From positions 1-39,225 of IMG/VR virus record IMGVR_UViG_2574180019_000004: a stretch of 39,225 nucleotides of DNA; one strand, 5' to 3'. Under the pieces are notes generated by a model that made no database searches, was not told the origin of the DNA, and saw only the letters and a list, made by a program, of their open reading frames with translations. Of this stretch, positions 8,748-34,548 are shown piece by piece (within the stretch, counting starts at the first letter, position 1; every line of letters begins with the position of its first letter). A program made the translations under genes and the position numbers. The stretch comes from a virus. Its lineage: Duplodnaviria > Heunggongvirae > Uroviricota > Caudoviricetes.

Positions 8748-8824
8748 TTACCTATGAGGTAACAAAATATTCTAAGCTCTATTGATTTTGTGTCTTATGT
8801 GGTTTTTAATTACCTTAGAGGTAA
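8748..8824. promoter_or_regulatory. Two perfect operator palindromes upstream of accessory/late operon
   Basis: TTACCtatgaGGTAA 8748-8762 and TTACCttagaGGTAA 8810-8824 (second overlaps RBS of gene at 8828); ATGTGGTT motif at 8797. Confidence 0.6.
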
Positions 8825-8827
8825 ATC

Positions 8828-9172
8828 ATGAGAAAACAGATACAGGCTCTTGGTCGACTCAAAACAGGCCAGATGAACAAAACAGAATCTGCGTATTGCC
8901 AGCACCTTGAGCAGCGTAAACGTGCAGGGGAAATCGTCTGGTATCGATTTGAGGGTATCAAGCTGCGGTTAGCTGACAACACGTTCTATACGCCCGATTT
9001 TGCTGTGATGCTCGCCACCGGCGAGATGGAACTGCACGAAGTGAAAGGTTTCTGGACCGACGACGCCAGGGTGAAAACCAAAGTCGCCGCAGATCAGTAT
9101 CCGTTCCGAATCATCGGGGTAACGGTTAAACCAAAGAAAGCAGGTGGTGGCTGGAACATCGAAGAGTTCTGA
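8828..9172 (+). CDS. DUF1064-like protein, possible PD-(D/E)XK-type nuclease
   Basis: 114 aa; D...E-x-K pattern (YTPDFAV ... ELHEVKG); identification from memory of family, not verified. Confidence 0.5.
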   Translation: MRKQIQALGRLKTGQMNKTESAYCQHLEQRKRAGEIVWYRFEGIKLRLADNTFYTPDFAVMLATGEMELHEVKGFWTDDARVKTKVAADQYPFRIIGVTVKPKKAGGGWNIEEF

Positions 9173-9233
9173 ATCGACGATCTTTTTAGTTATCAATGTA
9201 ATCAATAAGTTATGTGGATAAGCGAGGGTAAAG

Positions 9234-9749
9234 ATGGAAAGTAATATCAAAGGGTTAGTTGCCGCCGGGCATGAGATGGCTTCGGAACTGAAAGCAGAAT
9301 GTGGTGCCGTTGATATGCGCAGTGTGGCAAAGCTGATCAGCGATTTGGCAACGCAACTGGAAGTGCAACTGGTGCGTGCTAATGCGATGGCCGAAGACCA
9401 GCAGAAAGCGATTGAGTCAATTAAGCAGGCTGATGCAGCTGTTAAGTTGGCACACGAGAAGTTTTCGGCGCTGGCAGCAGAGAATGCGGAGCTTAAACAG
9501 TCGGAGAAGGAATTTAATAACTTCTGTCGTCAGGAGTACTACGGTTGGGAGGACAACTTCACGGAAACCCCAGCCACCGACGCTTTCCTGGCTGAAGTAC
9601 GGGCGCAGGCGTTTAATGACCTTTGCTCGGTGTTCGTTAAGCACGCGTCGGTGTCCGGGCTGGACGATGGCGACTGCGTTACGGTGAAAGAGGCGACTGA
9701 CGCCCTGCTGCATTGTGCGGAACAGCTTCACGAGGGAGTGCATTCATGA
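9234..9749 (+). CDS. Hypothetical phage protein (coiled-coil rich)
   Basis: 171-aa ORF with RBS AGGGTAAAG; no motif recognised. Confidence 0.55.
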   Translation: MESNIKGLVAAGHEMASELKAECGAVDMRSVAKLISDLATQLEVQLVRANAMAEDQQKAIESIKQADAAVKLAHEKFSALAAENAELKQSEKEFNNFCRQEYYGWEDNFTETPATDAFLAEVRAQAFNDLCSVFVKHASVSGLDDGDCVTVKEATDALLHCAEQLHEGVHS

Positions 9750-9979
9750 GCAACCTACTACCATGTCCATTCTGTGGCGGCGCAGCGCACGTTGCCAGCG
9801 AAGCAGATCACCCTGAATATGGCTCTGGCGGTCGATTCTATTTCGTTCGATGCGGTACGTGTCGCGCTCAATCTGGTAGCAAATATGCAGCGCCTGGAAA
9901 TGACTGCGCGATTTTTTATTCAGAGGTTAGAGCAGAGTGGAATCAGCGAGCAAAGGAGGCAACCAGTGAGCGAAATTAA
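9746..9979 (+). CDS. lar: Lar-family restriction alleviation protein
   Basis: N-terminal MSNLLPCPFCGG motif and second Cys pair (CGTC), WNQR near C-terminus, as in Rac RalR/Lar; RBS GAGGGAG. Confidence 0.75.
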   Translation: MSNLLPCPFCGGAAHVASEADHPEYGSGGRFYFVRCGTCRAQSGSKYAAPGNDCAIFYSEVRAEWNQRAKEATSERN

Positions 9980-10382
9980 TTACCAGGCACTGCGTGAGGC
10001 GGCGGAAGCAATAAAAGTCGTGGCAGCGCCGCAAAAATTGCTTGCCTTTCGCATGAAGGTCACGCCGCAGGTTGTGCTGGCCCTGCTGGATGAACGGGAA
10101 AGAAACCAGCAATACATCAAACGCCGCGACCAGGAGAACGAGGAGATTGCGCTAACGGTAGGGAAGCTGCGTGTTGAGCTTGAAGCAGAAAAACAGCGGG
10201 CAAAAGTTCTATTTATGGAAAATGCTCGGCTTAAGTCAGGCATAGCCGGTCTGATACACCTCGGTATTCGATATGCAGATGTTGAGGTCATGAAAATTGC
10301 TGGAGATGCCCAGCTTTCTACCCCATGCACTGACAGCATCATAAACAGCATTGCAACAGGCATTCGCATCAAAGGAGAGTGA
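9966..10382 (+). CDS. Hypothetical protein (Ea22-like, coiled coil)
   Basis: GTG start after strong RBS GGAGG; begins VSEINYQALREAAEA; overlaps lar 3' end. Confidence 0.5.
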   Translation: MSEINYQALREAAEAIKVVAAPQKLLAFRMKVTPQVVLALLDERERNQQYIKRRDQENEEIALTVGKLRVELEAEKQRAKVLFMENARLKSGIAGLIHLGIRYADVEVMKIAGDAQLSTPCTDSIINSIATGIRIKGE

Positions 10383-10383
10383 T

Positions 10384-10965
10384 ATGAGCGCTATAACCAA
10401 AGAACGTATCAAATTATTCATTAAAAATCCGCTTGATAACGGACTTACTCGTGGCGAACAAATGGAACTGGCACGAATTGCACTGGCATCACTGGGAGCA
10501 GAACCTGTAAGCCAAACTTACAACTTGCCAGAATTAATCGAAGGCATGGAGGTTTCCATTGATGTAAGCACTTGTGATGCGGATTTAGGTAATCGCTATT
10601 TCGGTACCGTCACCGAGGCGTTAGAACTTGATACTGCCAAGAATGGTTACATCCTCCTGGTTCAGGACGCAGAGCCAAACTTCGATATAAATGGCAACTC
10701 TCCGGTAACTCCGGATGGTTGGGTTATAGTGCCGAAGAAACTAACCGCTGAGAACGGCGCTAAGGGTGTGCTATCCGGTGAATTTTCAGAAACGACGTTT
10801 ATAAGCTGCCCGGAATGTTTTGGCGATGATGATTGCGATACCTGTGACGGTAGCGGGCGGATTGAAATTAAAGTACCAGTCACGTGGACGACCATAAAAT
10901 CCATCTGGGATAAAGGTATTGCGTATTTTGCAGCAGAACCGAGGCAGGAGGTTAACCGTGGCTAA
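10384..10965 (+). CDS. DUF551-like protein with C-terminal zinc ribbon
   Basis: NGNSPVTPDGW motif; CPECFGDDDCDTCDGSGR zinc ribbon; shares DNA modules with next gene. Confidence 0.6.
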   Translation: MSAITKERIKLFIKNPLDNGLTRGEQMELARIALASLGAEPVSQTYNLPELIEGMEVSIDVSTCDADLGNRYFGTVTEALELDTAKNGYILLVQDAEPNFDINGNSPVTPDGWVIVPKKLTAENGAKGVLSGEFSETTFISCPECFGDDDCDTCDGSGRIEIKVPVTWTTIKSIWDKGIAYFAAEPRQEVNRG

Positions 10966-11575
10966 CCTGCAACTTGCCGTCAAAGGTGAATACTTCGATG
11001 CCATGCTTCAGGGTAGCCAACCTGTAAGCCAAACTTACAAGTTGCCAGTTAATACACCTTGCCAAGATGCGCCAGCCCATATCTGGCTGCAAACAGCTGG
11101 AGTATGGCCAGAAGATGGCGAGTTAAGCGAATTAACGTGGTGCAGCCACAATCAGCACCATGATGACACGCTATATGTTCGAGCTGACTTGGTAAATGGC
11201 AACTCTCCGGTAACTCCGGATGGTTTATCCACGGTATGCGCTGAGGCTTATCAGGTTGTAGGAGTTATGGCAGATGCGCTTGGTGTATTCGGTGATGCAG
11301 CAGTACAGAAAGTTCTGGATAACCTGTCACAGCAAAAACTTGTTCACAGAGATGTGCTGCCGTTCTCGCGTCCGGTAACTCCGGATGGTTGGATAAGCTG
11401 TAGTGAGCGAATGCCCCCTCAAGATGATTGGATTTTAATTTATTCAAAGCACGGCGAGTATATGGCAGGACAGGTACAAGGGGAATACGTGGAGTTGAGC
11501 GACGGCACTTTATCGTGGTTAGGGAACGCCTTGTTCTGGATGCCGCTACCAGAACCGCCGCAGGAGGCGAAATGA
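10958..11575 (+). CDS. DUF551 domain protein (mosaic paralog)
   Basis: GTG start after AGGAGG; NGNSPVTPDG and RPVTPDGWISCSERMPP motifs; N-terminal 16 aa nearly identical to the ASCH-like gene at 11832. Confidence 0.6.
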   Translation: MANLQLAVKGEYFDAMLQGSQPVSQTYKLPVNTPCQDAPAHIWLQTAGVWPEDGELSELTWCSHNQHHDDTLYVRADLVNGNSPVTPDGLSTVCAEAYQVVGVMADALGVFGDAAVQKVLDNLSQQKLVHRDVLPFSRPVTPDGWISCSERMPPQDDWILIYSKHGEYMAGQVQGEYVELSDGTLSWLGNALFWMPLPEPPQEAK

Positions 11576-11832
11576 TGGATGTAAAAGAGAAGGTTTTGCA
11601 GGTGATGCGTTCCCGGGCTGCCCTGCAAGATAAAGCTCTCGGCGGGGAATATCCATTCAGGATGGCAACCTGGAATCTGCGGTTGGCAATGGAGAAGGAA
11701 TTTCCTGATGAAGAATGGCGTTCGGCAGATTTGCGCAAAATTCTTATGGAGCTGGCTAAAGACGGAACAGTATCCAAAGATACCCATGCCAGCCGGATTG
11801 GTCAGGCGGTATGGAGACTGGAGGTGAGGTAA
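11572..11832 (+). CDS. Hypothetical protein (86 aa)
   Basis: ATGA overlap with upstream stop; AGGAGG RBS. Confidence 0.5.
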   Translation: MMDVKEKVLQVMRSRAALQDKALGGEYPFRMATWNLRLAMEKEFPDEEWRSADLRKILMELAKDGTVSKDTHASRIGQAVWRLEVR

Positions 11833-12113
11833 TGGCTAACCTGCAACTTGCCGTTAAAGGTGAATACTTCGATGCCATGATTCGAGGGGAGAAAACGGAA
11901 GAGTATCGCCTGTGTAATGACTACTGGAATAAGCGCCTCGTTAACCGTAAGTATGACCGCCTGATTATCACAAAGGGATATCCGAAGCGCGAAGACTTCA
12001 GTCGCAGAATTGACGTCCCGTATAACGGATATGAAATAAAAACAATCACACATCCACACTTCGGTGATAAACCGGTAAAGGTGTTCGCGATAAAGGTAAA
12101 TATTGATGGCTAA
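11832..12113 (+). CDS. ASCH/PUA-like small protein
   Basis: 93 aa MANLQLAVKGEYFDAMIRGEKTEEYRL...; fold assignment from memory, unverified. Confidence 0.45.
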   Translation: MANLQLAVKGEYFDAMIRGEKTEEYRLCNDYWNKRLVNRKYDRLIITKGYPKREDFSRRIDVPYNGYEIKTITHPHFGDKPVKVFAIKVNIDG

Positions 12114-12444
12114 ATCAGCAGCAGAGCGCAAAGCCGCTCAGAGAGCCAGACAAGCTGCATCTGGTGTGCGTAAGCTGGAGATTGTGCTTGATGCTCAGGA
12201 AATTGAAATGCTGGAGCGTAACTGTGCCACACGTCGCCCCGGGCGTGCGCCTTACGAATTTGGTGAGTATATAGCGTTACTGATCCGCCAGGATGATGCA
12301 CGCGTGCGCGGGCATATAAAATCGATCAGCAGAAAACGTTGCGGTAAGTGCGGCGAGAGAGTTCCAGTTAATTCATGCCCGTGTAATGGTGACTCGCAAT
12401 GCTGGGTGACTAAAGGCTGGCATGAAACGAAATTAATAGTGTGA
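12106..12444 (+). CDS. Zinc-finger protein, candidate late-gene regulator
   Basis: C-terminal CGKCGERVPVNSCPCNGDSQC; last gene before terminator/operator/terS; stop codon lies inside GTGACATGTCAC palindrome. Confidence 0.5.
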   Translation: MAKSAAERKAAQRARQAASGVRKLEIVLDAQEIEMLERNCATRRPGRAPYEFGEYIALLIRQDDARVRGHIKSISRKRCGKCGERVPVNSCPCNGDSQCWVTKGWHETKLIV

Positions 12445-12452
12445 CATGTCAC
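12441..12452. repeat. Palindrome GTGACATGTCAC (copy 1 of 3)
   Basis: Exact 12-bp palindrome; terminator hairpin follows at 12494. Confidence 0.6.
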
Positions 12453-12493
12453 GAGTAGATTATGCATGATGAATTTGATGTGTTTTGAATACT

Positions 12494-12519
12494 GCCGCCA
12501 ACTATGGCGGCTTTATTTT
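12494..12519 (+). terminator. Rho-independent terminator upstream of terS
   Basis: gccgcc-aactat-ggcggc followed by tttatttt. Confidence 0.6.
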
Positions 12520-12530
12520 GCATGTTACTA

Positions 12531-12563
12531 TTACCACAACGGTAACTATTACCACGGTGGTTA
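12531..12563. promoter_or_regulatory. Operator palindromes immediately upstream of terS
   Basis: Perfect TTACCacaacGGTAA 12531-12545 and imperfect TTACCacggtGGTtA 12549-12563. Confidence 0.55.
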
Positions 12564-12565
12564 TG

Positions 12566-13159
12566 ATGCCTGCTGAACCTAAAACCTATAAACGCAAATC
12601 AACGCAATTTAAGCCACTAACAGCAATGCAGGAGGCTTATTGCCAGTCATACATCAAAACGCCTGAAAACCAGACTCAGGCAGCGATTAACGCAGGATTC
12701 TCCCCAAATACAGCGGCAGTTAAAGCCAGTGTCATGATGCGCGATGAACGCATTCAAAAACGGATTGCCGAGTTGATGGAGGAGCGCAACAAACGAATGC
12801 GCGTCAGTGCTGATTACGTTCTCATGCGCCTGGTGGAGATCGACCAGATGGACGTGATCGACATCCTCAACGACGATGGGAGCCTTAAACCAATCCGTGA
12901 GTGGCCGAAAATCTGGCGCACTACGCTTAGTGGCTTTGATCTGTCATCGACCATCATGAACATGAACGAGGATTCGATAGAGACAATCCTCAAAAAAATT
13001 AAATGGCCTGACAAGGTGAAGAACCTTGAGCTGATTGGTAAGCATGTTGATGTCAACGCGTTCAAAGAACGTCTGGATGTTAATGTGAATGTGACAATTG
13101 CTGATCGCATAGCAGCAGCCAGGAAGAGACTGAAAGAACGTCAGGATGGCAATAAGTGA
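12566..13159 (+). CDS. terS: Terminase small subunit
   Basis: Conserved TerS-like region AYCQSYIKTPENQTQAAINAGFSPNTAAVKASVMMRD; directly upstream of and overlapping terL; N-terminal part of the tracked ORF treated as non-coding. Confidence 0.8.
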   Translation: MPAEPKTYKRKSTQFKPLTAMQEAYCQSYIKTPENQTQAAINAGFSPNTAAVKASVMMRDERIQKRIAELMEERNKRMRVSADYVLMRLVEIDQMDVIDILNDDGSLKPIREWPKIWRTTLSGFDLSSTIMNMNEDSIETILKKIKWPDKVKNLELIGKHVDVNAFKERLDVNVNVTIADRIAAARKRLKERQDGNK

Positions 13160-14631
13160 CAGATACAGCGTTATCTCCTGAAGATCAGTTAATCGAGGAT
13201 ATTGCAGGGTTCACTCACGATCCGCTTGGCTATGCCCTCTATGCGTTCCCGTGGGGGGAAGAGGGTACTGAACTGGCACATGCCACCGGTCCACGTCAGT
13301 GGCAGGCCGATGCGTTCCGAGAGATACGTGATCACCTGCAGAATCCAGAGACGCGCTATCAGCCGCTTATGCTGGCACGCGCTTCTGGTCACGGTATTGG
13401 TAAATCCGCATTCATCTCAATGCTGATCAACTGGGGCATGTCCACTTGCGAGGATTGTAAGGTCGTGGTGACCGCCAACACCGACAACCAGCTACGAACG
13501 AAGACCTGGCCGGAAATTATCAAGTGGTCGAACCTTGCTATCACGAAAGAGTGGTTTACCTGTACCGCTACCGCGATGTACAGCAATGACCCTGGGCACG
13601 ACAAGCGGTGGCGAGCTGACGCAATCCCCTGGTCTGAGCACAACACTGAGGCATTCGCCGGACTACACAACGAGCGAAAACGCATCATCGTGGTATTCGA
13701 TGAAGCGTCGAACATTGCGGATCTGGTGTGGGAAGTTGCTGAGGGTGCGCTTACGGACGAAGACACTGAGATTATCTGGGTGGCGTTCGGAAACCCTACA
13801 CGTAACACCGGACGTTTCCGCGAATGTTTCCGCAAATATAAACACCGCTGGAAAACTGCGCAGATTGACAGCCGAACGGTGGAAGGCACTAACAAACAGC
13901 AGTTGCAGAAATGGGTTGATGACTACGGGGAAGACAGCGACTTCGTTAAAATCCGTGTGCGCGGCATATTCCCTGATGCATCTGAATTGCAGTTTATCCC
14001 TACCGGTCTTACTGATGAGGCAATGAAACGGGTGGTAACCGCTGCGCAGGTGGCGCATGCTCCGGTGATAATCGGTGTTGACCCGGCATATTCAGGCGTT
14101 GATGACGCGGTGATATACCTGCGGCAGGGGCTACACAGTAAGGTGCTGTGGACTGGCAACAAGACTACCGACGATCTGATTATGGCGAAGCGTATCGCTG
14201 ACTTTGAAGACCAGTATCAGGCTGACGCGGTGTTCATCGACTTCGGTTACGGAACCGGTCTGAAGTCAATCGGTGACGGATGGGGTCGTACATGGCAACT
14301 TGTTCCGTTCGGTGGCGCGTCTACTGACCCGCAGATGCTCAACAAGCGTGGGGAGATGTTCAATTCATGCAAGACATGGCTGAGGCTGGGCGGCATGCTG
14401 GATGACCAGGAAACAGCAGACGACCTGTCGGCGGCAGAGTACAAAGTTCGAGTGGATGGTAAAATCGTTATCGAACCGAAGGAAGATATCAAGGAGCGGA
14501 TTGGGCGTTCGCCGGGTAAAGGCGATGCGCTACTGCTGACGTTTGCGTTCCCTGTGTCTAAGCGTCTGCAAATTCCCGGGCAGCAGAACCAGCAAGGCAA
14601 GGCCATCACAGATTACGATCCCTATGCTTAA
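13156..14631 (+). CDS. terL: Terminase large subunit
   Basis: Walker A-like ASGHGIGKSAF and Walker B-like IIVVFDEAS; GTGA overlap with terS stop. Confidence 0.85.
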   Translation: MTDTALSPEDQLIEDIAGFTHDPLGYALYAFPWGEEGTELAHATGPRQWQADAFREIRDHLQNPETRYQPLMLARASGHGIGKSAFISMLINWGMSTCEDCKVVVTANTDNQLRTKTWPEIIKWSNLAITKEWFTCTATAMYSNDPGHDKRWRADAIPWSEHNTEAFAGLHNERKRIIVVFDEASNIADLVWEVAEGALTDEDTEIIWVAFGNPTRNTGRFRECFRKYKHRWKTAQIDSRTVEGTNKQQLQKWVDDYGEDSDFVKIRVRGIFPDASELQFIPTGLTDEAMKRVVTAAQVAHAPVIIGVDPAYSGVDDAVIYLRQGLHSKVLWTGNKTTDDLIMAKRIADFEDQYQADAVFIDFGYGTGLKSIGDGWGRTWQLVPFGGASTDPQMLNKRGEMFNSCKTWLRLGGMLDDQETADDLSAAEYKVRVDGKIVIEPKEDIKERIGRSPGKGDALLLTFAFPVSKRLQIPGQQNQQGKAITDYDPYA

Positions 14632-14671
14632 TCCGCTGGTTGGGATAATGTCGTTGATATCCTCTGATGAG

Positions 14672-14705
14672 GATAAAACAAAGCCAGCTCATCGGCTGGC
14701 TGTTT
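14672..14705. terminator. Bidirectional intrinsic terminator between terL and convergent moron gene
   Basis: gccagc-tcatcg-gctggc with A-run upstream and tgtttg downstream. Confidence 0.6.
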
Positions 14706-14717
14706 GTGACATGTCAC
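14706..14717. repeat. Palindrome GTGACATGTCAC (copy 2 of 3)
   Basis: Exact copy immediately after the terminator hairpin. Confidence 0.6.
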
Positions 14718-14721
14718 GGTG

Positions 14722-15096
14722 TTATTGCTCGCTTAGCTTCTGCTTCAGCAAGTAACCTTCGAGCATCCAGATTTTGTTTACAGCATTCTGCCGGGCAATC
14801 TTCCTACCAATTTCTGCATCAAAGTTTTCCGGGCTTGCACAGGCACTCTCTCCGGTAACGGTGAAGCCATTCTTCAGTACCAATACGCAGAAAGTGAGAA
14901 GGTGCAGAGCATCAGGGGTGGCTTCGACATAAGGCTCCGGATTATAAATAAGGTCATCTTCTTTAGCCTGGTGGTCACCCTGCGCAGCAGTGAAAAAATG
15001 CTCACTGCAAATGAGGCCTTCAATTTTCTCGGGTGTTACACGCGGTGCCGTTTTGCCTTTCTCAACGATTTCTTTTTCGATTTGCTGGTCGTTCAT
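14722..15096 (-). CDS. Hypothetical protein (moron, opposite strand to packaging/head genes)
   Basis: 124-aa ORF with strong RBS AAGGTGAG 4 nt before ATG; co-oriented with tRNA; no motif recognised. Confidence 0.6.
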   Translation of the reverse strand: MNDQQIEKEIVEKGKTAPRVTPEKIEGLICSEHFFTAAQGDHQAKEDDLIYNPEPYVEATPDALHLLTFCVLVLKNGFTVTGESACASPENFDAEIGRKIARQNAVNKIWMLEGYLLKQKLSEQ

Positions 15097-15207
15097 AATC
15101 TCACCTTAAAAAAATGCCCGGCGAACCAGGCGAACTGGAAGCAATGAGTTATGCCTTCCGTGGCTGTACGGGTTTACAGCATGAAGTCATCGCAATGGCG
15201 TCCTGCT

Positions 15208-15251
15208 GTAAAAAGGGCGGTGATAGTCCTTCAAGGGAACCATCACCGCCA
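15208..15251 (-). terminator. Candidate terminator downstream of tRNA
   Basis: gggcggtgat ... atcaccgcc 9-bp stem with 17-nt loop, followed on minus strand by UUUU. Confidence 0.45.
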
Positions 15252-15293
15252 AGCACCTGGAACTTCTGGCATCACGGTCCTTAGGCGTGATTC

Positions 15294-15370
15294 TGGCGTG
15301 GCATGCAGGATTCGAACCTGCGACCAACCGCTTAGAAGGCGGTTGCTCTGTCCGACTGAGCTAATGCCAC
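15294..15370 (-). tRNA. tRNA-Arg (anticodon UCU)
   Basis: Minus-strand 77-nt cloverleaf folded by hand: acceptor GTGGCAT/ATGCCAC, D-stem GCTC/GAGC, anticodon stem ACCGC/GCGGT with loop CTTCTAA, T-arm GCAGG-TTCGAAT-CCTGC, discriminator G, encoded CCA. Confidence 0.9.
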
Positions 15371-15692
15371 AACGCTGAGAGCACTTAGCCTGTTAAGGCG
15401 CCACACTTTGTCGCGGCTCCATAAATGCTCTCATCGTTGTACCCTCGTCTCTTCCGAGGCGTCACACCGAATCGCCGGGATGGTGAATCCCCGTGCGCGG
15501 AATAAAACCGCTCGACTTGCACATTCCGGCTACCTGGTTCGTTTGCCCGAGCAAGGGAGGGTGCCCCTTAAACGTATCCAGACCGCTATCGTCGCATGTG
15601 CCATACGCCGTACTGCTCAAAATAAAAGCTCACTCCACCTGTTCAATTTAACGACAAGCCAGTCAGGTTAGTAACCGGAATGAGCTCTTTGG

Positions 15693-15707
15693 TTACCTTA
15701 AAGGTAA
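15693..15707. promoter_or_regulatory. Perfect operator palindrome upstream of head operon
   Basis: TTACCttaaaGGTAA; ATGTGGTT motif at 15753 between it and gene start. Confidence 0.6.
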
Positions 15708-15797
15708 TAATTCGTGCGTTAAATGTCAACTACCTACGATAAATAAATCATATGTGGTTAAATTGGTAATAATTTAATTGCGTACGGAGTCATTGAT

Positions 15798-16004
15798 ATG
15801 TGCATGGGTAGCTCACCATCAGTGCCTGCAACACCAGAAGTTCAGGCAGCACCACAGGAGCAGGATGCCGCCGTTGTTGATGCCCGCGACGAAGAAACAC
15901 GTCGCCGTCGCGCTGCTGCTGGTCGTAGTTCTACGCTGCTTACTGGTTCTCAGGGCGACACATCAACCGCTAATACCAGCGGTAAAACGCTGCTTGGTCA
16001 GTAA
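15798..16004 (+). CDS. Small hypothetical protein upstream of portal
   Basis: 68-aa ORF MCMGSSPSVPATPEV..., low complexity; weak support. Confidence 0.4.
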   Translation: MCMGSSPSVPATPEVQAAPQEQDAAVVDARDEETRRRRAAAGRSSTLLTGSQGDTSTANTSGKTLLGQ

Positions 16005-16018
16005 CCGGAGTCATTGAA

Positions 16019-17991: not shown

Positions 17992-17993
17992 TC

Positions 17994-18689: not shown

Positions 18690-18703
18690 GAGAGGAAATG
18701 ACA

Positions 18704-19690: not shown

Positions 19691-19741
19691 CGCCTGTTAT
19701 TAACCTGTGGGTCGTAACAGACCCACTAATGGAGAAAGAAG

Positions 19742-20179
19742 ATGATCACCGACAAACTGTTGATGTTCTCCGAAGCTCAGGCGGTTACGAATACCGCGGC
19801 TTCTACTGACGTAATCGATCTCGGTCCAATTGATGGAAACCGTCGCGATATCGGTGTGGGTTACCCGCTTGAGTTTTGGGTGCTGGTTAACGAATCCGCC
19901 ACGGCAAGTGGTGAGGCAACTGTAAACATCCAGTTGCAGACGAGTGAGAATAACAGCTCATGGACCACTATTTATGATAGTGGCGCACTGGCAAAGACCG
20001 CCCTGGCAGCAGGTAAACGAGTTGTTTCTGCAAAGGTGCCTGCCGGTGTTCAGCGATATCTGCGTGTTAACTACTCCGTCGCAACTGGCCCACTAACGGC
20101 CGGCAAATTCACTGCGGGTATCAGTCTGGATGTTGATGCCAATACGCCGTACCCGATCCGCTCAAAAGTAACTGGTTAA
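19742..20179 (+). CDS. Hypothetical virion protein (possible capsid decoration)
   Basis: 145-aa ORF with RBS GGAGAAAG; position after capsid gene. Confidence 0.5.
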   Translation: MITDKLLMFSEAQAVTNTAASTDVIDLGPIDGNRRDIGVGYPLEFWVLVNESATASGEATVNIQLQTSENNSSWTTIYDSGALAKTALAAGKRVVSAKVPAGVQRYLRVNYSVATGPLTAGKFTAGISLDVDANTPYPIRSKVTG

Positions 20180-20189
20180 GGTGATATCG

Positions 20190-20525: not shown

Positions 20526-20541
20526 GCCTCGCGGATCAGAC

Positions 20542-20563: not shown

Positions 20564-20575
20564 GCAGGAGTGTAT

Positions 20576-24978: not shown

Positions 24979-24990
24979 GGGGATAATAAG

Positions 24991-29303: not shown

Positions 29304-29308
29304 ATTAA

Positions 29309-31783
29309 ATGAGACAGGAATGTATACAAGCGGTCCAGCAGGCGGCGCAGCGCACGTTAACGGCGCGAGAAATACAGAACATTGAAGACCGCATTTATCG
29401 AAATATGCGCTCCATTGCTCGTGATGACCCGATGTCGTGGCGACAACTTTCCGAATCAGAACGGTTGTATCGTGCAGCACAATTGGCATCTGAAGAATTA
29501 CAGCGAGAAGCGGCATTAAAGAAACGTCGTGTGGCCCTCACTATAGCCGCACGTCAGAGATTGGATAAATTTATCAATAGCTATCAAGGGGCTGATGGGA
29601 AACTTGGCGCTCTTAACCGTACTATTGCTTTTAATGCAGACGGTAAATCGAATTTCCTCTCTGTTGAATCCAGAACAAAAGCCACCCGTGATTATGCATT
29701 GAGTCAATTGCAGGAGGCATTCGAAGCAGTTGATCCTCGCTTTTTTGGTCTGTTTGAAGATGAAGCGGGCGTACGTGACCTGGTATATGAAATGCGGGGG
29801 CAAAATACTGGCAATGCTAAAGCAAGAAAAGGTGCTAAGGCGTGGAGAGAAGTTACAGAGCTGCTGCGCCGCCGGTTTAATGATGCTGGTGGGGACATTG
29901 GCTATCTCGAAAACTGGGGGATCCCTCAACATCATTCTATGGAAAAGGTTGGGGCAGTATCAAAGGATAAGTGGGTTAGCGATGTTATAGGTAAGCTGGA
30001 TCGCAAATATTATATCCGAGCCGATGGACAACTGATGAACGATGCCGAGTTGTCTTCATTTCTTGGAGAGGCTTATAACACGATCGCTACTGGTGGGCTG
30101 AATAAGCTTACTGATACCGGAATGCGAATTTCCGGCGCACGTGCTAACCGTGGTAATGCATCACGACAGATACATTTCAAAGATGCAGATTCCTATCTGC
30201 AATATCAGCAACTTTATGGCGATCGCTCTCTATGGGAAATCATGGTCGGTCACCTGGAAGGTATCAGTAAAGATATTGCACTGGTGGAAACATATGGCCC
30301 AAACCCCGATCATGTTTTCCGCTCTCTTCTTGATCAGGTGAAGGCAGAAACGGCAACAGCTAACCCGAGTAAAACCGGTAAAGTCGAGCGGCTGGCGAAC
30401 AACACAGAGAATCTGTACAACTTTATTTCCGGAAAGACACAGCCTGTAGCGAATCCGCACATCGCGCGATGGTCTGACAATATCCGCAACTGGCTGGTTG
30501 CCAGCAGACTCGGATCCGCGTTGCTGTCATCGTTCTCTGATCTTGGAACCATGTATCTGTCTGCGAAGGTGACCAACCTTCCAATGAACCAGTTATTCCG
30601 CAACCAGCTTGAAGCTATGGACCCAACGAACCGTACTGAGCTTGCGCGGGCGCGCCGCGCTGGTCTGGCGATGGAATCTCTACTTGGCAGCGTTAACCGC
30701 TGGGCGATGGATAATATGGGGCCGTCTGTGTCTCGTTGGGCTGCAACGGCGGTAATGCGTGCCAGTGGGCTTACAGCATGGTCAGATGCGCACAAGCGCG
30801 CCTATGGCGTAACCATGATGGGAAGCCTGGGAGAAGTAGTGTCACGGACACCAGACCTTCGTAGCCTCGATGACTCTGATTTTCGTATCCTGAAAAGTAA
30901 AGGGATTACTGACACAGACTGGAGCGTATGGAAGCTGGCGCAACAGGAGGACTGGGGGAACGGTAATAATACGATGCTGACACCGGAAAGCATTATGCGT
31001 ATCCCTGATTCAGCAGTTAAACATCTTGGTGAGCCTGAACGCGTGAAATTTGAGGCAATGCGTAAACTGCTCGGTGCCGTAACTGAAGAAGTTGATATGG
31101 CTGTTATTACACCGGGCGCACGTGAGCAGATGTTCGTAGGGTCTGGTCTTCAGCGTGGAACATGGAAAGGTGAATTAACGAGAAGTGTTTTCCTGTTTAA
31201 ATCGTTCCCTATCTCGGTTGTTATGCGTCACTGGTCACGCGCTATGGGTATGCCGTCTGCTGGTGGGCGTGCAGCATATATAGCAACGTTTTTAGCAAGC
31301 ACAACCATGCTTGGTGCTCTTTCCATGCAGATTACTGATCTTATTAATGGGAGAAATCCAAAGGAAATGACCGGTGACCACATGGTTAAATTCTGGATAA
31401 ATGCATTTTTAAAAGGTGGCGGGGCTGGGTTGTACGGTGATTTTCTTTTCTCTGACCACACTAGGTACGGGAGCGGCGCGCTGGCGTCGATGCTTGGCCC
31501 GGTAGCTGGTCTGGTTGATGACGTAGTGAAGATAGCTCAGGGCATACCGCTAAATGCTGTGGAAGGGAAGAGTGAGCAGACTGGTGGTGATCTGGTTAAG
31601 CTGGGGAAGGGGCTGATGCCAGGTGCGAATCTCTGGTACTTGAAGGCGGCTCTCGATCATATGATCTTTAACCAGATGCAGGAGTATTTTTCACCAGGCT
31701 ATTTGCGTAAAATGGAGCAACGTTCGAAGAAAGAGTTTAACCAGACATACTGGTGGCGACCTCAGGATGTCACTCCGCAATAA
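29309..31783 (+). CDS. Internal virion/ejection protein (large)
   Basis: 824-aa ORF with RBS GAGG; last large gene before moron island. Confidence 0.55.
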   Translation: MRQECIQAVQQAAQRTLTAREIQNIEDRIYRNMRSIARDDPMSWRQLSESERLYRAAQLASEELQREAALKKRRVALTIAARQRLDKFINSYQGADGKLGALNRTIAFNADGKSNFLSVESRTKATRDYALSQLQEAFEAVDPRFFGLFEDEAGVRDLVYEMRGQNTGNAKARKGAKAWREVTELLRRRFNDAGGDIGYLENWGIPQHHSMEKVGAVSKDKWVSDVIGKLDRKYYIRADGQLMNDAELSSFLGEAYNTIATGGLNKLTDTGMRISGARANRGNASRQIHFKDADSYLQYQQLYGDRSLWEIMVGHLEGISKDIALVETYGPNPDHVFRSLLDQVKAETATANPSKTGKVERLANNTENLYNFISGKTQPVANPHIARWSDNIRNWLVASRLGSALLSSFSDLGTMYLSAKVTNLPMNQLFRNQLEAMDPTNRTELARARRAGLAMESLLGSVNRWAMDNMGPSVSRWAATAVMRASGLTAWSDAHKRAYGVTMMGSLGEVVSRTPDLRSLDDSDFRILKSKGITDTDWSVWKLAQQEDWGNGNNTMLTPESIMRIPDSAVKHLGEPERVKFEAMRKLLGAVTEEVDMAVITPGAREQMFVGSGLQRGTWKGELTRSVFLFKSFPISVVMRHWSRAMGMPSAGGRAAYIATFLASTTMLGALSMQITDLINGRNPKEMTGDHMVKFWINAFLKGGGAGLYGDFLFSDHTRYGSGALASMLGPVAGLVDDVVKIAQGIPLNAVEGKSEQTGGDLVKLGKGLMPGANLWYLKAALDHMIFNQMQEYFSPGYLRKMEQRSKKEFNQTYWWRPQDVTPQ

Positions 31784-31792
31784 GGAACAACA

Positions 31793-32206
31793 ATGAAGGA
31801 ATTATTGCTGTTATCGGTATTTTTGATATCCGCTTGCTCGACATCCTATGATGTTTATGACGGTGTTGATAAGGCATATTGCGACAAAGTTAAAATGGAT
31901 TTTTCTCTTGCCAAGACGGCGAAGGATAGTTGTATTGATCACTACGTCAAGACTTATACCAAGCCAGCATCATCGGCATCTGATATTGCTGAAGGTGCTG
32001 TGTTTGAGTGTAACAAGGTGATATCCATCGCAGCGAGTTCTTCATACGATGCTGCTGTATGTGCAATGGCTGAAAGAAACGGCATGTCAGTGCAAAAAGT
32101 TAATAGCATGATAAACAGTAATGACGAAGCCAAAATAAGAACTGATATCAGCTCGGTGAAAAAAGATGCCATGAACAGAGTTGTAAAATATCAGTCATCT
32201 TTATAA
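31793..32206 (+). CDS. Lipoprotein (moron; candidate superinfection-exclusion factor)
   Basis: Signal peptide with lipobox MKELLLLSVFLISAC-S; 137 aa; followed by palindrome and terminator. Confidence 0.7.
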   Translation: MKELLLLSVFLISACSTSYDVYDGVDKAYCDKVKMDFSLAKTAKDSCIDHYVKTYTKPASSASDIAEGAVFECNKVISIAASSSYDAAVCAMAERNGMSVQKVNSMINSNDEAKIRTDISSVKKDAMNRVVKYQSSL

Positions 32207-32207
32207 G

Positions 32208-32219
32208 TCGTGACATGTC
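32208..32219. repeat. Palindrome GTGACATGTCAC (copy 3 of 3)
   Basis: Exact copy, immediately followed by terminator hairpin. Confidence 0.6.
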
Positions 32220-32243
32220 ACAGGCCGCAAAAGCGGCCTTGTT
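32220..32243 (+). terminator. Rho-independent terminator after lipoprotein gene
   Basis: aggccgc-aaaa-gcggcct followed by tgtttt. Confidence 0.65.
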
Positions 32244-32263
32244 TTAACGAATGCCACCGCCCG

Positions 32264-32950
32264 TCAGAAGAACCCTGCTTTGTCGTTGATGTACTCCGCG
32301 TGCGTCTGGATATCACGCAGGCATTTGTTCACACCGACGATGTAGCAGAACATGGTGGTCAACTCCGCCGCCGCGCCCGATACGTCGTGCCCGTCTTCCT
32401 GTAACTGGTTCAGCAGATTCATCAGCAGTGAGTTCTCCGTCAGGCCGAGAACACCAGACGGCGAGTGAATCAGACTGCGGTAGCCGGGCTTTAGTGGGGC
32501 GCTGTAGGTTTTGTTCTCTATCTTCATTGCCTGCATCACTGCTGATGCTGTGGCGTTGGCTACCTGGTCGGCAACCATCTTTATGCGTTCTTCTTGCGGG
32601 AGCGAGTTTTTAATGTAACTTCCGGTGCGGCGGATCTGAGGAAGAACCTCACCTGTAACCCATTTACGAAAGCGGTATGGGATAGTGCCTGGTGTCACCG
32701 CATCGCGGCAGCGGAGGATCAGTGTGTAGAGGCCTGACTCGTTGATAATATTGGTTTCGCCTTGACGGCCTAAGTTAAATTTAGCCCTTTCATCATCATC
32801 AAGAGATTTTATTGACATAGTGGGGTTTGTCAGTTGAAGAGCTTTAATAACGTCTTTGGCAACAAACCAAGGATTTCCATCAATAACAATGGCTCGAATG
32901 GTTGCTTCTGATTCAAAATGAAAAACAGATGGGGTTACGTTAGCAGTCAT
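32264..32950 (-). CDS. Bro-N domain antirepressor-like protein
   Basis: Start at internal ATG (MTANVTPSVFHFESEATIRAIVIDGNPWFVAKDV = Bro-N signature) with RBS AAGGTGA; C-terminal approx 70 aa paralogous to the small gene at 34096-34353. Confidence 0.75.
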   Translation of the reverse strand: MTANVTPSVFHFESEATIRAIVIDGNPWFVAKDVIKALQLTNPTMSIKSLDDDERAKFNLGRQGETNIINESGLYTLILRCRDAVTPGTIPYRFRKWVTGEVLPQIRRTGSYIKNSLPQEERIKMVADQVANATASAVMQAMKIENKTYSAPLKPGYRSLIHSPSGVLGLTENSLLMNLLNQLQEDGHDVSGAAAELTTMFCYIVGVNKCLRDIQTHAEYINDKAGFF

Positions 32951-33231
32951 AGTGATCACCTTTGTAGTTAGGTTAATCACCACTACCGACGCCAATCGGT
33001 TGGTGGTGAACTGTGCAGGGTTGGCGTAACCGGCTACAAAGGACCCGGCGCACCTTTCGGTGCCCCCACACAGCCCACCATAGAATAGGTGCGCTTTACA
33101 CATAAAAAAACCGCTTATGCGGCATATGTGCCTCTGTAGTAATCCGGGACGCCAATCCCGGCACTGGATTTTGCCAGTGCCCGATTACTATGGCACAAGA
33201 GGAGTGCGATGTAAATTTACCGTAAAGGTAA
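32951..33231 (-). promoter_or_regulatory. Structured 5' leader / candidate small RNA upstream of Bro-N antirepressor
   Basis: Hairpin 32977-33009 (12-bp stem, loop ACGCCAAT); complementary TTGGCGT at 33021-33027; hairpin 33050-33063; terminator-like ccgc-ttat-gcgg + A-run (33104-33122); three-helix element 33136-33191 with loop ACGCCAAT again; candidate -35 TTGATT / -10 TATCAT on minus strand. Confidence 0.4.
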
Positions 33232-33324
33232 TGATAAGCGCGAAGAAACATTGAAATCAACCGTATTTGGTTGATTGCGTTTAACGCTTGATCACCTGAA
33301 AGCAAGATATTACCTTTAAGGTAA
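33217..33324. promoter_or_regulatory. Two perfect operator palindromes in divergent promoter region
   Basis: TTACCgtaaaGGTAA 33217-33231 and TTACCtttaaGGTAA 33310-33324 (20 bp upstream of ATG of gene at 33345). Confidence 0.6.
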
Positions 33325-33344
33325 TGTTATTGTGAGGAAAAGCA

Positions 33345-34073
33345 ATGGAAGTTTTCTGGATAGTTGTTGGTGTGGTTGCGGTGATTATTTACGTTATCAA
33401 CCAGAACAAGACTAAGATCTCTGATCGTACGGTCGTTAATCATAACAAAACGATAAAGACCGAAGATGGGGAGATAACGATTAATCGTACACAGGTGATA
33501 GAACACACCTCTACTCAGTTTCAAAAAACTGGAGGTAATGCGCCTAATATTTCCGCACCTCCTGCTTATGATAGTGCGGTAATCCAGACATATTATAAAC
33601 AGCAGGAGTTAGCAAAAGAGAGGCAACTGATTCAGCCAAAGCCGTTTACAGCTGAGATTCCACCTGGAGTGTCAACGCGTCCGGCATATCATGGAAGATT
33701 CCCTGGTGATGACATATCGTCTCAGTCATCTAAAAAAGCACCTCAGGCAATATCAGAGCCAGCAAGAATACCTTCTGTATCGCCGCCAAAAGAAGAATCA
33801 GCTAACAGAGTTTCAAGTGGTAGCAAGCAGTGCTTGCGATGCAGAATAAACCTTCCATATGAAAAATTCAGGAAATCGTCAAAAAATCCAGATGGATTGA
33901 CTAAATGGTGTGCAAGGTGTCTCGATGGCCCAAAGAATACACGCCATATGAAGTGGTGCCCAATTTGTAATGTCCGCAGAAAACGAACCAGCTTTTACCC
34001 TAATAATCAAAATGCGGACGGCTTAATGGCATGGTGCAAAACGTGCTGGGATGAGCACAAAGCGAAACGATAG
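33345..34073 (+). CDS. Membrane-anchored tandem zinc-ribbon protein (unknown function)
   Basis: N-terminal TM helix (VFWIVVGVVAVIIYVI) followed by basic NQNKTK; S/P-rich linker; two repeated modules KxCxRC...NPDGLxxWCxxC (CLRC...WCARC and CPIC...WCKTC); RBS GAGGAAAAG. Confidence 0.65.
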   Translation: MEVFWIVVGVVAVIIYVINQNKTKISDRTVVNHNKTIKTEDGEITINRTQVIEHTSTQFQKTGGNAPNISAPPAYDSAVIQTYYKQQELAKERQLIQPKPFTAEIPPGVSTRPAYHGRFPGDDISSQSSKKAPQAISEPARIPSVSPPKEESANRVSSGSKQCLRCRINLPYEKFRKSSKNPDGLTKWCARCLDGPKNTRHMKWCPICNVRRKRTSFYPNNQNADGLMAWCKTCWDEHKAKR

Positions 34074-34097
34074 GCCGCTCTTGCGGCCTTTAAATTT
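34072..34097. terminator. Intrinsic terminator shared by convergent genes
   Basis: ggccgc-tctt-gcggcc followed by tttaaattt. Confidence 0.55.
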
Positions 34098-34353
34098 ACC
34101 GGGTTTGTTTTCGTAATTGTTCGGCACAATAGTCGAGATGTGTTTGCAGATCCCGCATAGACATCTGTGAGCTGGTGACGTAGTTAATCAGTGCAGTCAG
34201 TTCGGCAAGTGGGCCATCGACATTAAATCCATCCTTATCGAGATCCCGGAGTAATTTCATCAAGTGCGATCCCTCCACCAGTGACCTGACGCCTCCCGGC
34301 GTGTGAATCCTTTCGGTAAATCCGTCTTCCAGTGGATAGTGATACTGCTGCAT
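34096..34353 (-). CDS. Small antirepressor-like protein (85 aa), LexA-box controlled
   Basis: ATG 34353 after GGAGAAG; paralogous to Bro-N protein C-terminus (IHTPGGVRSLVEGSHLMKLL...AELTALINYV vs IHSPSGVLGLTENSLLMNLL...AELTTMFCYI); LexA box about 20 bp upstream. Confidence 0.6.
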   Translation of the reverse strand: MQQYHYPLEDGFTERIHTPGGVRSLVEGSHLMKLLRDLDKDGFNVDGPLAELTALINYVTSSQMSMRDLQTHLDYCAEQLRKQTR

Positions 34354-34372
34354 CTTATCTTCTCCATGCAAT

Positions 34373-34392
34373 AACTGTATATTTATACAGTA
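34373..34392. promoter_or_regulatory. LexA (SOS) box
   Basis: aaCTGTATATTTATACAGta = CTGT-N8-ACAG, 18/20 match to consensus TACTGTATATATATACAGTA. Confidence 0.7.
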
Positions 34393-34429
34393 GCAAATAA
34401 TTTGTTTGCTATCCAGCACGTTTTGCAAA

Positions 34430-34444
34430 TCACCTGAAAGGTAA
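34430..34444. promoter_or_regulatory. Variant operator tCACCtgaaaGGTAA between antirepressor-like and tail fibre genes
   Basis: Right half perfect, left half CACC variant as at 6435 and 6802; ATGTGGTT motif at 34477. Confidence 0.4.
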
Positions 34445-34548
34445 TATCTTTTCGTATTTATGGATTATCTATCCATATGTGGTTTTTCAGGTAATAGAAT
34501 AACCAGATATGCGGCGCAACGGGTGCTGCGACTATCTGGAGATTTAAC

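Follow-up and report, generated by a model that had tools for sequence, protein, structure and literature searches.

The repressor of SPC32H (PDB 5d50) is a tetramer whose palindromic sites are bound by domain pairs from different dimers, and one tetramer is enough for repression, according to a paper that cites its structure (PMC9638917). In the GenBank record of epsilon15, seven sites carry the annotation 'protein_bind repressor', among them those before terS, gp3, the tail fibre gene, PL and gp24, and a scan with the palindrome TTACC-N5-GGTAA matches all seven. The stretch of DNA analysed here (the window, 39,225 nucleotides) is in its entirety a complete phiV10/epsilon15-like prophage (Uetakevirus), 98% identical to the phiV10 record, and five of the seven epsilon15 sites are orthologous to regions within it (terS, gp3, tailspike, PL and nin). 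Its Rep repressor gene (5777-6361, minus strand) encodes a full-length homologue of the solved tetrameric repressor of SPC32H (PDB 5d50; E = 4e-42), and the operator palindrome and its genomic places are the same as in the epsilon15-like Rep system (epsilon15, SPC32H; PDB 5d50/5d4z). At one mismatch or fewer, the window holds 13 matches to TTACC-N5-GGTAA against 0.63 expected, a count reached by none of 100 shuffles. The repeated string studied here, ATGTGGTT...GGTAATA, differs from these operators in that GGTAATA is one arm only, fused to a -10 hexamer and with GGTT as its left partner. We read it as the conserved core of the prophage's putative late-gene promoters. Its already known part is a repressor-binding site, half of which adjoins a second palindromic box (the P-box); the P-box is annotated in none of the records consulted, and the epsilon15 GenBank record does not mark the promoter-proximal half-site either. 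Overall, the repeated string is real, yet control regions of this kind are ordinary in phages.

Copies of the repeated string

ATGTGGTT occurs exactly three times in the whole window, always on the plus strand (8797, 15752 and 34477), and is not enriched on its own (3 observed against 1.50 expected; 15 of 100 shuffles reach 3). The 23-mer pattern CATATNNGGTTNNNNNGGTAATA has two matches against 0.00 expected, even with two mismatches allowed, one before the head operon (15749-15771) and one before the tailspike gene (34474-34496), with 18 of the 23 bases shared. A previous sequence-only reading had described this pair as nearly identical 22-mers; the pair stands, with a length of 23 and ends that were one base off. 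Of the four copies that it had united in one motif, two belong to one class (15752 and 34477) and two do not (8797 and 9211). The placement of the motif at the start of rightward operons is supported, and the range of 25-65 bp upstream of plus-strand gene starts was roughly right, the distance to the next start codon being 31 nt (8828), 46 nt (15798) and 72 nt (34549) for ATGTGGTT and 23 nt (9234) for the weak copy at 9211. The same or nearly the same motif was found in seven complete genomes, 12 GTDB prophages and about 85 distinct IMG/VR contexts, and GGTAA, suspected of being an operator half-site, is indeed one arm of the Rep operator. Absent from that reading were the P-box palindrome (AACCATATATGGTT-like), which has ATGTGGTT as its right arm, and a further copy at 37222-37235.

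The third ATGTGGTT (8797-8804; previously placed at 8794-8807) is real but has a different, early-type architecture. It represents the right arm only of the P-box and lies in the spacer of TTGATT-17-TTTAAT, between the two full operators of the promoter before the DUF1064 gene (Pnin, 8748-8824, plus strand; O1 8748-8762, TTGATT 8782-8787, TTTAAT 8805-8810, O2 8810-8824); the orthologue of this O1 is an annotated repressor site in epsilon15. The supposed fourth copy, ATGTGGAT (9211-9218, plus strand; the weak ATGTGGat), was rejected from the motif family as unconserved in six relatives, which carry ATACGGGT or AAACGGGT at this position. A perfect DnaA-box-like 9-mer (9213-9221) overlaps it.

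The likeness of the two 23-mers could in principle be a functionless relic of duplication or shared ancestry, and the 8-mer alone is within chance. The composite, however, is expected 0.00 times, it stands as an invariant island among diverged flanks in 12 genera, and its kept and free positions form an orderly pattern; contradicted by this conservation, a relic is hardly credible.

Predicted promoters of the head, tailspike and lysis operons

Upstream of the head operon, a full Rep operator (O1, TTACCTTAAAGGTAA, 15693-15707) matches the palindrome exactly and is unchanged in 12 aligned relatives; its epsilon15 orthologue (2931-2947) is annotated 'protein_bind repressor'. It is followed by the P-box AATCATATGTGGTT (15746-15759), by the Rep right half-site GGTAA(TA) (15765-15771, plus strand; 15-mer frame 15755-15769, 62 bp after the O1 start) and by a predicted -10, TAATTT (15770-15775, plus strand), which aligns with TAGAAT of the tailspike promoter. 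The block AT.TGGTTAAAT is unchanged in 12 prophages from 12 genera, and ATATGTGGTTAAATTGGTAATAATTTAA upstream of gp3 is identical in seven genomes with diverging flanks, the most distant being BUCT711 (portal 59% identical); the 23-mer is kept in relatives whose portal protein is just 59-84% identical. The gap of 10 nt between GGTT and the -10 is preserved in Rahnella despite a 1-nt deletion, which suggests that the box is positioned relative to the polymerase.

Between the ant-like and tailspike genes, a Rep operator with one mismatch (O1, TCACCTGAAAGGTAA, 34430-34444; epsilon15 orthologue 19895-19911, an annotated repressor site) is followed by the P-box ATCCATATGTGGTT (34471-34484), which overlaps a weak -35-like TCCATA (34472-34477), by the right half-site GGTAA(TA) (34490-34496, plus strand; found in 8/8 independently chosen genomes) and by a predicted -10, TAGAAT (34495-34500, plus strand). 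In both 23-mer copies, the GGTAA half-site abuts the -10-like hexamer (TAATTT, TAGAAT). Relatives carry TAGAAT, TAAAAT, TAAACT or TACAAT as the tailspike -10, with T1, A2 and T6 kept without exception, and conservation in their tailspike promoters is limited to CATAT, GGTT, GGTAA and TAnAAT, with NN and N5 varying freely. The 8-mer does not hold as a unit here, as the GT of ATGTGG varies freely (AA, AC, AT, CT or GA) and CATAT..GGTT alone is kept. In a standard sigma-70 scan the gp3 and tailspike regions of the window fail, their -35-like hexamers matching at just 3/6 positions; the epsilon15 tailspike orthologue reads TTCATA-17-TAGAAT, a 9/12 sigma-70 match.

These data bear on the earlier suggestion that ATGTGGTT is a phage-specific promoter element, serving a polymerase or sigma factor encoded by the phage. 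Its recurrence at operon starts and the lack of a consensus -35 in the window's copies agree with this; however, the annotations of phiV10, epsilon15, SPC32H and Tyrion contain neither an RNA polymerase nor a sigma factor, the neighbouring elements resemble sigma-70 hexamers, with hexamers obeying the -10 rules at sigma-70 spacing, and the 8-mer is unconserved in tailspike promoters. We consider such an element very improbable.

The main role of the full operators at 15693 and 34430 may be at divergent leftward promoters instead of the rightward late ones. At 15693, the minus-strand TACCTT inside O1 is likely the -10 of a predicted leftward promoter whose putative -35 is the conserved TTGACA 17 bp away (15724-15729, minus strand; GTCAA of this hexamer unchanged in 12 relatives). 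This promoter would serve tRNA-Arg (15294-15370, minus strand) and an orf at 14722-15096 (minus strand). The operator at 34430 abuts TTGCAA, which resembles a -35, faces the ant-like gene and would suit its leftward transcription.

A degenerate third late-promoter copy (37222-37248, plus strand) consists of the P-box ATCCGTAAATGGTT (37222-37235), TATTGTG and TATGAT, with a half-site GGTAAT nearby (37212-37217); its phiV10 orthologue has a perfect AACCATATATGGTT and TTAACC-17-TATAAT, a 10/12 sigma-70 match. The GGTT arm of the lysis copy also opens a long predicted RNA hairpin (z = -4.64), and the orthologous stretch in epsilon15 is an annotated RNase III site; on this evidence, the lysis transcript would begin upstream of the box. 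An alternative explanation is that the conserved block acts in RNA, as a 5'-leader hairpin or RNase III site in transcripts starting further upstream. Both the lysis hairpin and the RNase III sites annotated nearby in epsilon15 agree with it, and the gp3 block folds as well (GGUUAAAUU with AAUUUAAUU, dG -11.4 kcal/mol, z = -2.05), but this fold is a marginal one (equalled or surpassed by 10 of 200 shuffles), in the tailspike class the N5 that separates GGTT from GGTAA varies without a compensating partner, and covariation was looked for in the tailspike leader and not found. Moreover, both copies are preceded by a terminator and by genes on the opposite strand, which calls for a new promoter at that point. 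An action in RNA appears quite improbable to us.

Rep half-sites and the P-box

O1 and the O2 frame start 62 bp apart at gp3, PL (5643/5705) and Pnin (8748/8810). Variant arms occur in the PR operator at 6465 (GGTGA) and in the second terS operator (GGTTA in place of GGTAA); the terminase operon lacks a P-box and has just Rep operators. Among the relatives, the half-site varies together with the type of Rep and follows its specificity. The Providencia prophage, with a Rep only 34% identical and the operator ATAAACA-N3-TGTTTAT, carries TGTTTAT instead of GGTAAT just upstream of gp3 and lacks the CATAT..GGTT box, and Buttiauxella carries GGTGA at the head-operon half-site, a variant arm that the window's PR operator also has. 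Rep binding at the lone half-site may be absent altogether.

The P-box itself is an imperfect 14-bp palindrome, A[AT]CC-N6-GGTT, with seven matches in the window at three mismatches or fewer (1.5 expected; 0 of 100 shuffles reach seven), five of them intergenic, and in all genomes examined it is present where the head, tailspike and lysis operons begin. Another box, AACCAAATCTGGTT (6822-6835), follows the terminator of the cro-like gene, is preceded by an imperfect operator (6802-6816) and is kept in all relatives, Rahnella included, and an operator/P-box/operator trio (33217, 33259 and 33310; 33217-33324) lies upstream of an orf at 33345-34073. The Rep, Cro-like, gp40-like and PerC-like proteins all co-occur with the P-box everywhere, which singles out none of them as its binder; the product of the Cro-like HTH gene (phrog_35; 6516-6746, plus strand) is one candidate.

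Our preferred reading, to which we assign a probability of roughly 55%, is that the 23-mer forms the core of two predicted late promoters that Rep would hold off and at which a second phage regulator would act on the P-box. It would span roughly -36 to -13 of the promoters of the head/tail operon and of the tailspike (plus lysis), with the third, degenerate copy of the core preceding the lysis genes; the late timing of the head/tail, tailspike and lysis operons is suggested by their gene content. Three elements would be interleaved, namely the P-box, whose left part overlaps a weak -35-like hexamer T[TC]CATA, the GGTAA Rep arm and, directly following, a -10 (TAATTT or TAGAAT) used by the host sigma-70 polymerase. 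A Rep tetramer bound in the lysogen to the full operator, which lies 41-53 bp upstream of the P-box, would reach the promoter-proximal half-site with its second pair of DNA-binding domains and keep the promoter closed, in the 62-bp geometry of the O1/O2 pairs of PL and Pnin. During lytic growth, a second phage-encoded regulator would occupy the P-box, most likely as an activator compensating for the weak -35.

The sign of this regulator could also be the opposite, with the P-box as a second, negative operator that occludes the -35/spacer of otherwise constitutive promoters and is bound by the Cro-like protein or by Rep, the latter in an alternative register (ACC-N6-GGT instead of ACC-N5-GGT). 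Box and -10 are separated by 10 nt at gp3 and the tailspike gene, by 7 nt before the lysis genes and by about 1 nt in Pnin and PL; Pnin and, in Tyrion and BUCT711, PL are promoters with a good -35 that carry the box within their spacer. Such variable registers over core elements, and boxes within good -35 promoters, fit a repressor site better than an activator site, whereas the 10-nt distance kept across the Rahnella indel speaks against it. Binding by Rep would agree with the ACC...GGT core common to both palindromes and with GGTTA in the second terS operator, but the Providencia boxes should then have changed with its Rep operator, and this prophage still has ACC/GGT-type palindromes (TTAACC-N5-GGTTAA). 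The persistence of these palindromes is in favour of a second operator. The Providencia Cro-like protein is 47% identical to the window's over 32 aligned residues at its start, a part that we take to include the HTH, and the window's Cro-like protein resembles the N-terminal domain of Rep weakly in its HTH (E = 0.004 in a single comparison). However, the rep-cro intergenic region, the expected Cro site, has no P-box, and a Cro-type shut-off of the head, tailspike and lysis operons in lytic growth makes little biological sense. Taken together, we regard a second operator as possible but doubtful.

Comparison with other phage control regions

The Lpa-dependent late promoters of P1 have a -10 and an inverted repeat near -22 and no -35, the MotA box of T4 lies at -30, and the cII sites of lambda straddle the -35. 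Similar to these, the promoters predicted here combine a good -10 and a poor -35 with a conserved box in the -35/spacer of several late operons; in contrast to them, the distance from box to -10 varies (7 or 10 nt) and the box is also found inside early promoters with a good -35. Paired repressor sites at a fixed spacing by promoters (62 bp at PL, Pnin and gp3) and a multimeric repressor recall OL/OR of lambda. However, lambda-type control is confined to one immunity region, whereas the window has its sites at nearly all transcription units, including the late operons, and the bridging that would correspond to lambda looping is a prediction. In mycobacteriophages L5/L1, 'stoperators' are repressor sites scattered through the genome that are asymmetric, share one orientation and lie inside transcription units. 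PMC1934351 describes multiple asymmetric operators. As in L5/L1, one repressor has many sites beyond the immunity region, while those of the window are symmetric and located at promoters.

Prophage organisation and the Rep operators

In a 5-kb test stretch, the window was about 98% identical to the Escherichia phages phiV10, HEMP4, phiv142-3 and ZX5, members of the genus Uetakevirus, the epsilon15-like temperate podophages. At both of its ends (1-17 and 39209-39225) the window carries, in direct orientation, the 17-bp att core ATTGAGTGGGAATGATT, a sequence given as attP in PMC9782041, so that it is exactly one whole prophage in integrated order. When the phiV10 and epsilon15 records are used as a guide, the gene order runs from int (208-1464) over a leftward early operon to rep (5777-6361, minus strand), a cro-like gene (6516-6746), replication genes, the DUF1064 gene (start 8828), accessory genes, a p55-like regulator gene (12103-12444, phrog_536), terS and terL, a leftward tRNA-Arg gene (15294-15370) with a small leftward orf beside it, gp3 (15798), the portal gene and the structural operon (to 32206), antirepressor-type genes, the tailspike gene (34549-37200) and then the lysis genes.

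We confirmed that GGTAA is a half-site, as the sequence-only reading had proposed: it is one arm of the palindrome TTACC-N5-GGTAA, which had 13 matches at up to one mismatch in the window compared to 0.63 expected, and the over-representation of GGTAATA (13 copies versus 2.4 expected) follows from this. All 13 palindromes lie within regulatory regions, namely one before int, two at the leftward early promoter PL, at least two at PR/PRM, two each before the DUF1064 gene, terS and orf 33345, one before gp3, and one between ant and the tailspike gene. The same scan of epsilon15 returned exactly the seven places annotated as "protein_bind: repressor" in its GenBank record. The cognate repressor, Rep, is encoded in the same genome and aligned over its full length with the SPC32H repressor (PDB 5d50; E = 4e-42). 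According to the summary of PMC9638917, the latter is a tetramer whose palindromic sites are bound by domain pairs from different dimers, one tetramer being enough for repression. Given the epsilon15 annotation, the structural match and this summary, the operator part of the finding is already known biology; the ZX5 paper defines no operators. Within 12485-12570, the phiV10-style terS start (TTG, here 12485) places two Rep operators (12531, 12549) inside the gene, and in epsilon15, SPC32H and Tyrion the start is annotated past the operators (ATG 12566 here); the longer, phiV10-style annotation is probably wrong.

The full operators upstream of gp3 and of the tailspike gene may mainly control divergent leftward promoters. 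An invariant GTCAA upstream of gp3 reads TTGAC(A) on the minus strand and points at the tRNA-Arg gene. This conserved TTGACA (15724-15729, minus strand) lies 17 bp from TACCTT (15701-15706), itself inside O1, the full Rep operator, and from this pair tRNA-Arg(tct) (15294-15370) and the orf at 14722-15096 are probably transcribed leftward under Rep control. The tailspike-region operator adjoins TTGCAA, which faces the ant-like gene. A LexA-box-like CTGTATATTTATACAG (34375-34390) is located beside this operator and upstream of the ant-like orf (34096-34428, minus strand), which agrees with the SPC32H ant gene reportedly being under SOS control.

A half-operator and a second conserved box before gp3 and the tailspike gene

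The recurrent motif described by the sequence-only reading is real once redefined as a composite. The 8-mer ATGTGGTT, whose third copy at 8797 was indeed present, occurs three times in the window (8797, 15752, 34477) versus 1.5 by chance, and 15 of 100 shuffles reached three, so that on its own it proves nothing. It was rejected as a unit because of this count and because its "GT" is not conserved in tailspike promoters, where the relatives compared have AA, AC or AT. A weak fourth copy at 9211 was dropped, as six relatives read ATACGGGT or AAACGGGT there. The long pair, previously described as nearly identical 22-mers, did stand out (pattern CATATNNGGTTNNNNNGGTAATA: two matches in the window versus 0.00 expected, even with two mismatches), although its members are 23-mers (15749-15771 and 34474-34496) with 18 of 23 bases in common.

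The region around 9211 carries other elements: 9200-9221 comprises an IHF-consensus-like AATCAATAAGTTA, conserved in relatives, and then a perfect DnaA-box 9-mer, TGTGGATAA (9213-9221), the exact reverse complement of TTATCCACA. The function of this DnaA box is doubtful, since it is a single copy found in the window and phiV10 only and is absent from six other relatives.

ATGTGGTT is the right arm of a 14-bp imperfect palindrome, A[AT]CC-N6-GGTT, here called the P-box. With up to three mismatches, it had seven matches in the window versus 1.5 expected, a number reached in none of 100 shuffles, and with up to two mismatches five versus 0.15 in an independent simulation. Five of the seven are intergenic (6822, 15746, 33259, 34471, 37222). 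Orthologous upstream regions were compared in phiV10, epsilon15, SPC32H, Tyrion, PAT1, BUCT711 and ST11-OXA245phi3.2, which have portal proteins with 59-99% identity to that of the window. Upstream of gp3, the window and six of these relatives, seven complete genomes in all, had an identical ATATGTGGTTAAATTGGTAATAATTTAA between diverged flanks, so the motif is conserved in related phages. Upstream of the tailspike gene, the relatives compared kept only CATAT, GGTT, GGTAATA and the following AAT. Phages in which the lysis cassette stands as a unit of its own have a further copy, [AT][AT]CCATAT[AG]TGGTT, followed by TATTGTG and then TATGAT or TATAAT; its box is a perfect palindrome, AACCATATATGGTT, in phiV10 and Tyrion, and the copy in the window (37222-37248) is degenerate.

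Scanning IMG/VR for the exact pattern gave at least 119 stretches, and the matches listed comprised 99 distinct contexts, approximately 85 of them of the gp3 or tailspike type. Among these listed matches, the tailspike type leaves the NN and N5 positions free, and the hexamer directly after GGTAA is TAGAAT, TAAAAT, TAAACT or TACAAT, with T1, A2 and T6 always kept and the third position variable, as would be expected of a sigma-70 -10 element. A search of IMG/VR for distant relatives gave only matches at least 99% identical. Sampling GTDB at one genome per species yielded 13 related prophages, no two of them from the same species, with hosts that are enterobacterial or related to these. An alignment of 12 gp3 regions showed no variation in the operator arms, GTCAA or AT.TGGTTAAAT, and the left part of the box varied (CATATGT, CGTATAT, CTTATGT, CTTATAT, CTAATAT). 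In Rahnella, a single base has been lost from the stretch that joins GGTT to GGTAA, and 10 nt still separate GGTT from a TAnnnT hexamer. We found no P-box annotation in the records of phiV10, epsilon15, SPC32H, Tyrion and three others, and no paper describing it. As a conserved box for a regulator in phage promoters, the P-box is overall an element of an ordinary kind.

The GGTAA of the composite belongs to the 15-bp frames 15755-15769 (TGGTTAAATTGGTAA) and 34480-34494 (TGGTTTTTCAGGTAA), which hold the right operator arm only. Full membership requires the 15-17 bp palindrome (A)TTACC-N5-GGTAA(T), so these are half-operators rather than full Rep operators, and the epsilon15 record has no annotation for the isolated arm before gp3 or the tailspike gene. 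Three observations, of spacing, a variant arm and co-variation, argue for the half-site belonging to Rep. First, the full palindromes lie upstream at a distance, from the start of O1 to the start of the GGTAA-ending frame, of 62 bp at gp3 and 50 bp at the tailspike promoter, and 62 bp is also the spacing from O1 to O2, the promoter-proximal operator, at PL (5643/5705) and at Pnin, the early-type promoter before the DUF1064 gene (8748/8810), as in epsilon15. Second, Buttiauxella has GGTGA at the half-site position, the variant arm of the PR operator in the window. Third, in a Providencia prophage whose Rep is 34% identical, the operator is ATAAACA-N3-TGTTTAT (three perfect copies plus half-site arrays) and the sequence just upstream of gp3 is TGTTTAT, not GGTAAT; the site thus changes with repressor specificity, in this one lineage. 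This Providencia alcalifaciens prophage has its sites at 290-306, 534-550, 3498-3514, 1244-1350 and 9745-9751, and carries a second palindrome, TTAACC-N5-GGTTAA, where the E. coli phages have the second Rep operator (PL and nin promoters).

Probable promoter character and candidate binders of the P-box

Upstream of both copies there are terminators and/or opposite-strand genes, so that a new rightward promoter is needed at each. When scanned for a sigma-70 consensus, defined as a -35 and a -10 hexamer separated by 16-18 bp, with 9 or more of 12 positions matching and the -10 carrying A2 and T6, the copies in the window failed; the epsilon15 tailspike orthologue (TTCATA-17-TAGAAT, 9/12) and the phiV10 lysis copy (TTAACC-17-TATAAT, 10/12) passed, and the -10 variants among the IMG/VR matches listed obey the consensus. 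This pattern is consistent with a good -10 and a weak -35 that would be buried in the P-box. With TAGAAT or TAATTT as the -10, the P-box would span -36 to -23 and GGTAA would follow at -17 to -13; the lysis copy has its box 3 bp nearer to the -10 than the gp3 and tailspike copies. By eye, the motif fits none of the sigma-54, CRP, IHF, CpxR or ArcA consensus sites.

Two leader structures were also predicted. A GC-rich hairpin (34503-34539; dG -20.9 kcal/mol, z = -4.55) lies where the tailspike mRNA is predicted to begin and reaches the GGAG ribosome-binding site with its 3' side; the relatives compared showed no covariation and have only a 4-bp GCGC core in common. The lysis-gene leader (approximately 37233-37290) would form a long hairpin (dG -26.6 kcal/mol, z = -4.64) that begins at the GGTT arm of the P-box, and the orthologous stretch is an RNase III site in the epsilon15 record.

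The p55-like "transcriptional regulator" (12103-12444) was disfavoured as the P-box binder, because myophage ZF40 has a 67%-identical homologue with neither P-box nor Rep operator. The protein had no PDB, Pfam or NCBIfam match, and its AlphaFold model (pLDDT 61.5) was too poor for use. Its gene travels with a different palindrome, the 12-bp GTGACATGTCAC, of which the window has three perfect copies (12441-12452, 14706-14717, 32210-32221) versus 0.00 expected. Each is located at the 3' end of a rightward operon (after the p55-like gene, terL and the last structural gene) and adjoins an intrinsic terminator. Most Uetakevirus relatives have GTGACATGTCAC at two or all three of the same places, and in the unrelated ZF40 there are three, one of which immediately follows the p55 homologue; from these positions, gene and palindrome look like one module.

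Rep, the Cro-like protein, the gp40-like zinc protein (approximately 6897-7097) and the PerC-like protein (2766-3065, minus strand) were present in every box-bearing genome examined, so that they could not be told apart by co-occurrence. Weak HTH similarity links the Cro-like protein to the N-terminal domain of Rep, and both palindromes have an ACC...GGT core, with a spacing of 5 in the Rep operator versus 6 in the P-box. In Providencia the Rep operator is replaced and ACC/GGT-type palindromes persist; its Cro-like protein is 47% identical to that of the window over 32 aligned residues, a stretch that, read by eye, appears to include the HTH and to be better conserved than that of Rep. Taken together, these similarities would make the Cro-like protein a reasonable candidate binder.

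Read as a simple repressor site, the P-box would be expected in the rep-cro region, which has none, and repressing late genes during lytic growth makes little biological sense. A simple activator site fits poorly with the inconstant distance from box to -10, with the absence of a P-box from the terS operon, and with its presence in the Pnin spacer (in Tyrion and BUCT711 also in the PL spacer), where the promoter already has a good -35 hexamer. As a speculation, a dual regulator, early-off and late-on, would reconcile these observations. The boldest reading, held tentatively at a probability of roughly one in three, is that the P-box is the site of a so far unrecognised Uetakevirus regulator that, with the Rep half-sites, would exert two-key control of all the late operons (head, tailspike and lysis) and would also damp early promoters with the box in their spacer.

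Comparison with known late-control systems

Promoters of the T7/SP6 type need a phage RNA polymerase gene, and none is annotated in the 98%-identical phiV10, in epsilon15, SPC32H or Tyrion, which argues against a phage polymerase reading the phage-specific promoter element suggested by the sequence-only reading. In lambda Q-type control, Q binds an element located between the -35 and -10 hexamers of the late promoter, a terminator follows that promoter at a short distance, and the phage carries a gene for a Q-family antiterminator. Neither phiV10 nor epsilon15 has an annotated Q-like gene, and the stretches following the tailspike and lysis copies showed no terminator-like site, so the late promoters would not appear to be of this type. 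At P1 late promoters, Lpa acts with an inverted repeat that replaces the -35 and keeps a fixed position; the likeness is architectural only, and the P-box position is not fixed (7 or 10 nt).

Phages of the phiV10 type are applied to E. coli O157:H7 as reporter and typing phages, and epsilon15 and SPC32H are models for serotype conversion and an unusual tetrameric repressor. The predicted late promoter positions, each with a repressor half-site and a second conserved box, would be targets for engineering expression. The composite motif does not open a new kind of mechanism; it suggests that late-gene control in Uetakevirus is direct and distributed, not Q-like. If a two-key P-box regulator exists, the early-to-late switch of these phages would be unlike the single Q-dependent late promoter of lambda.
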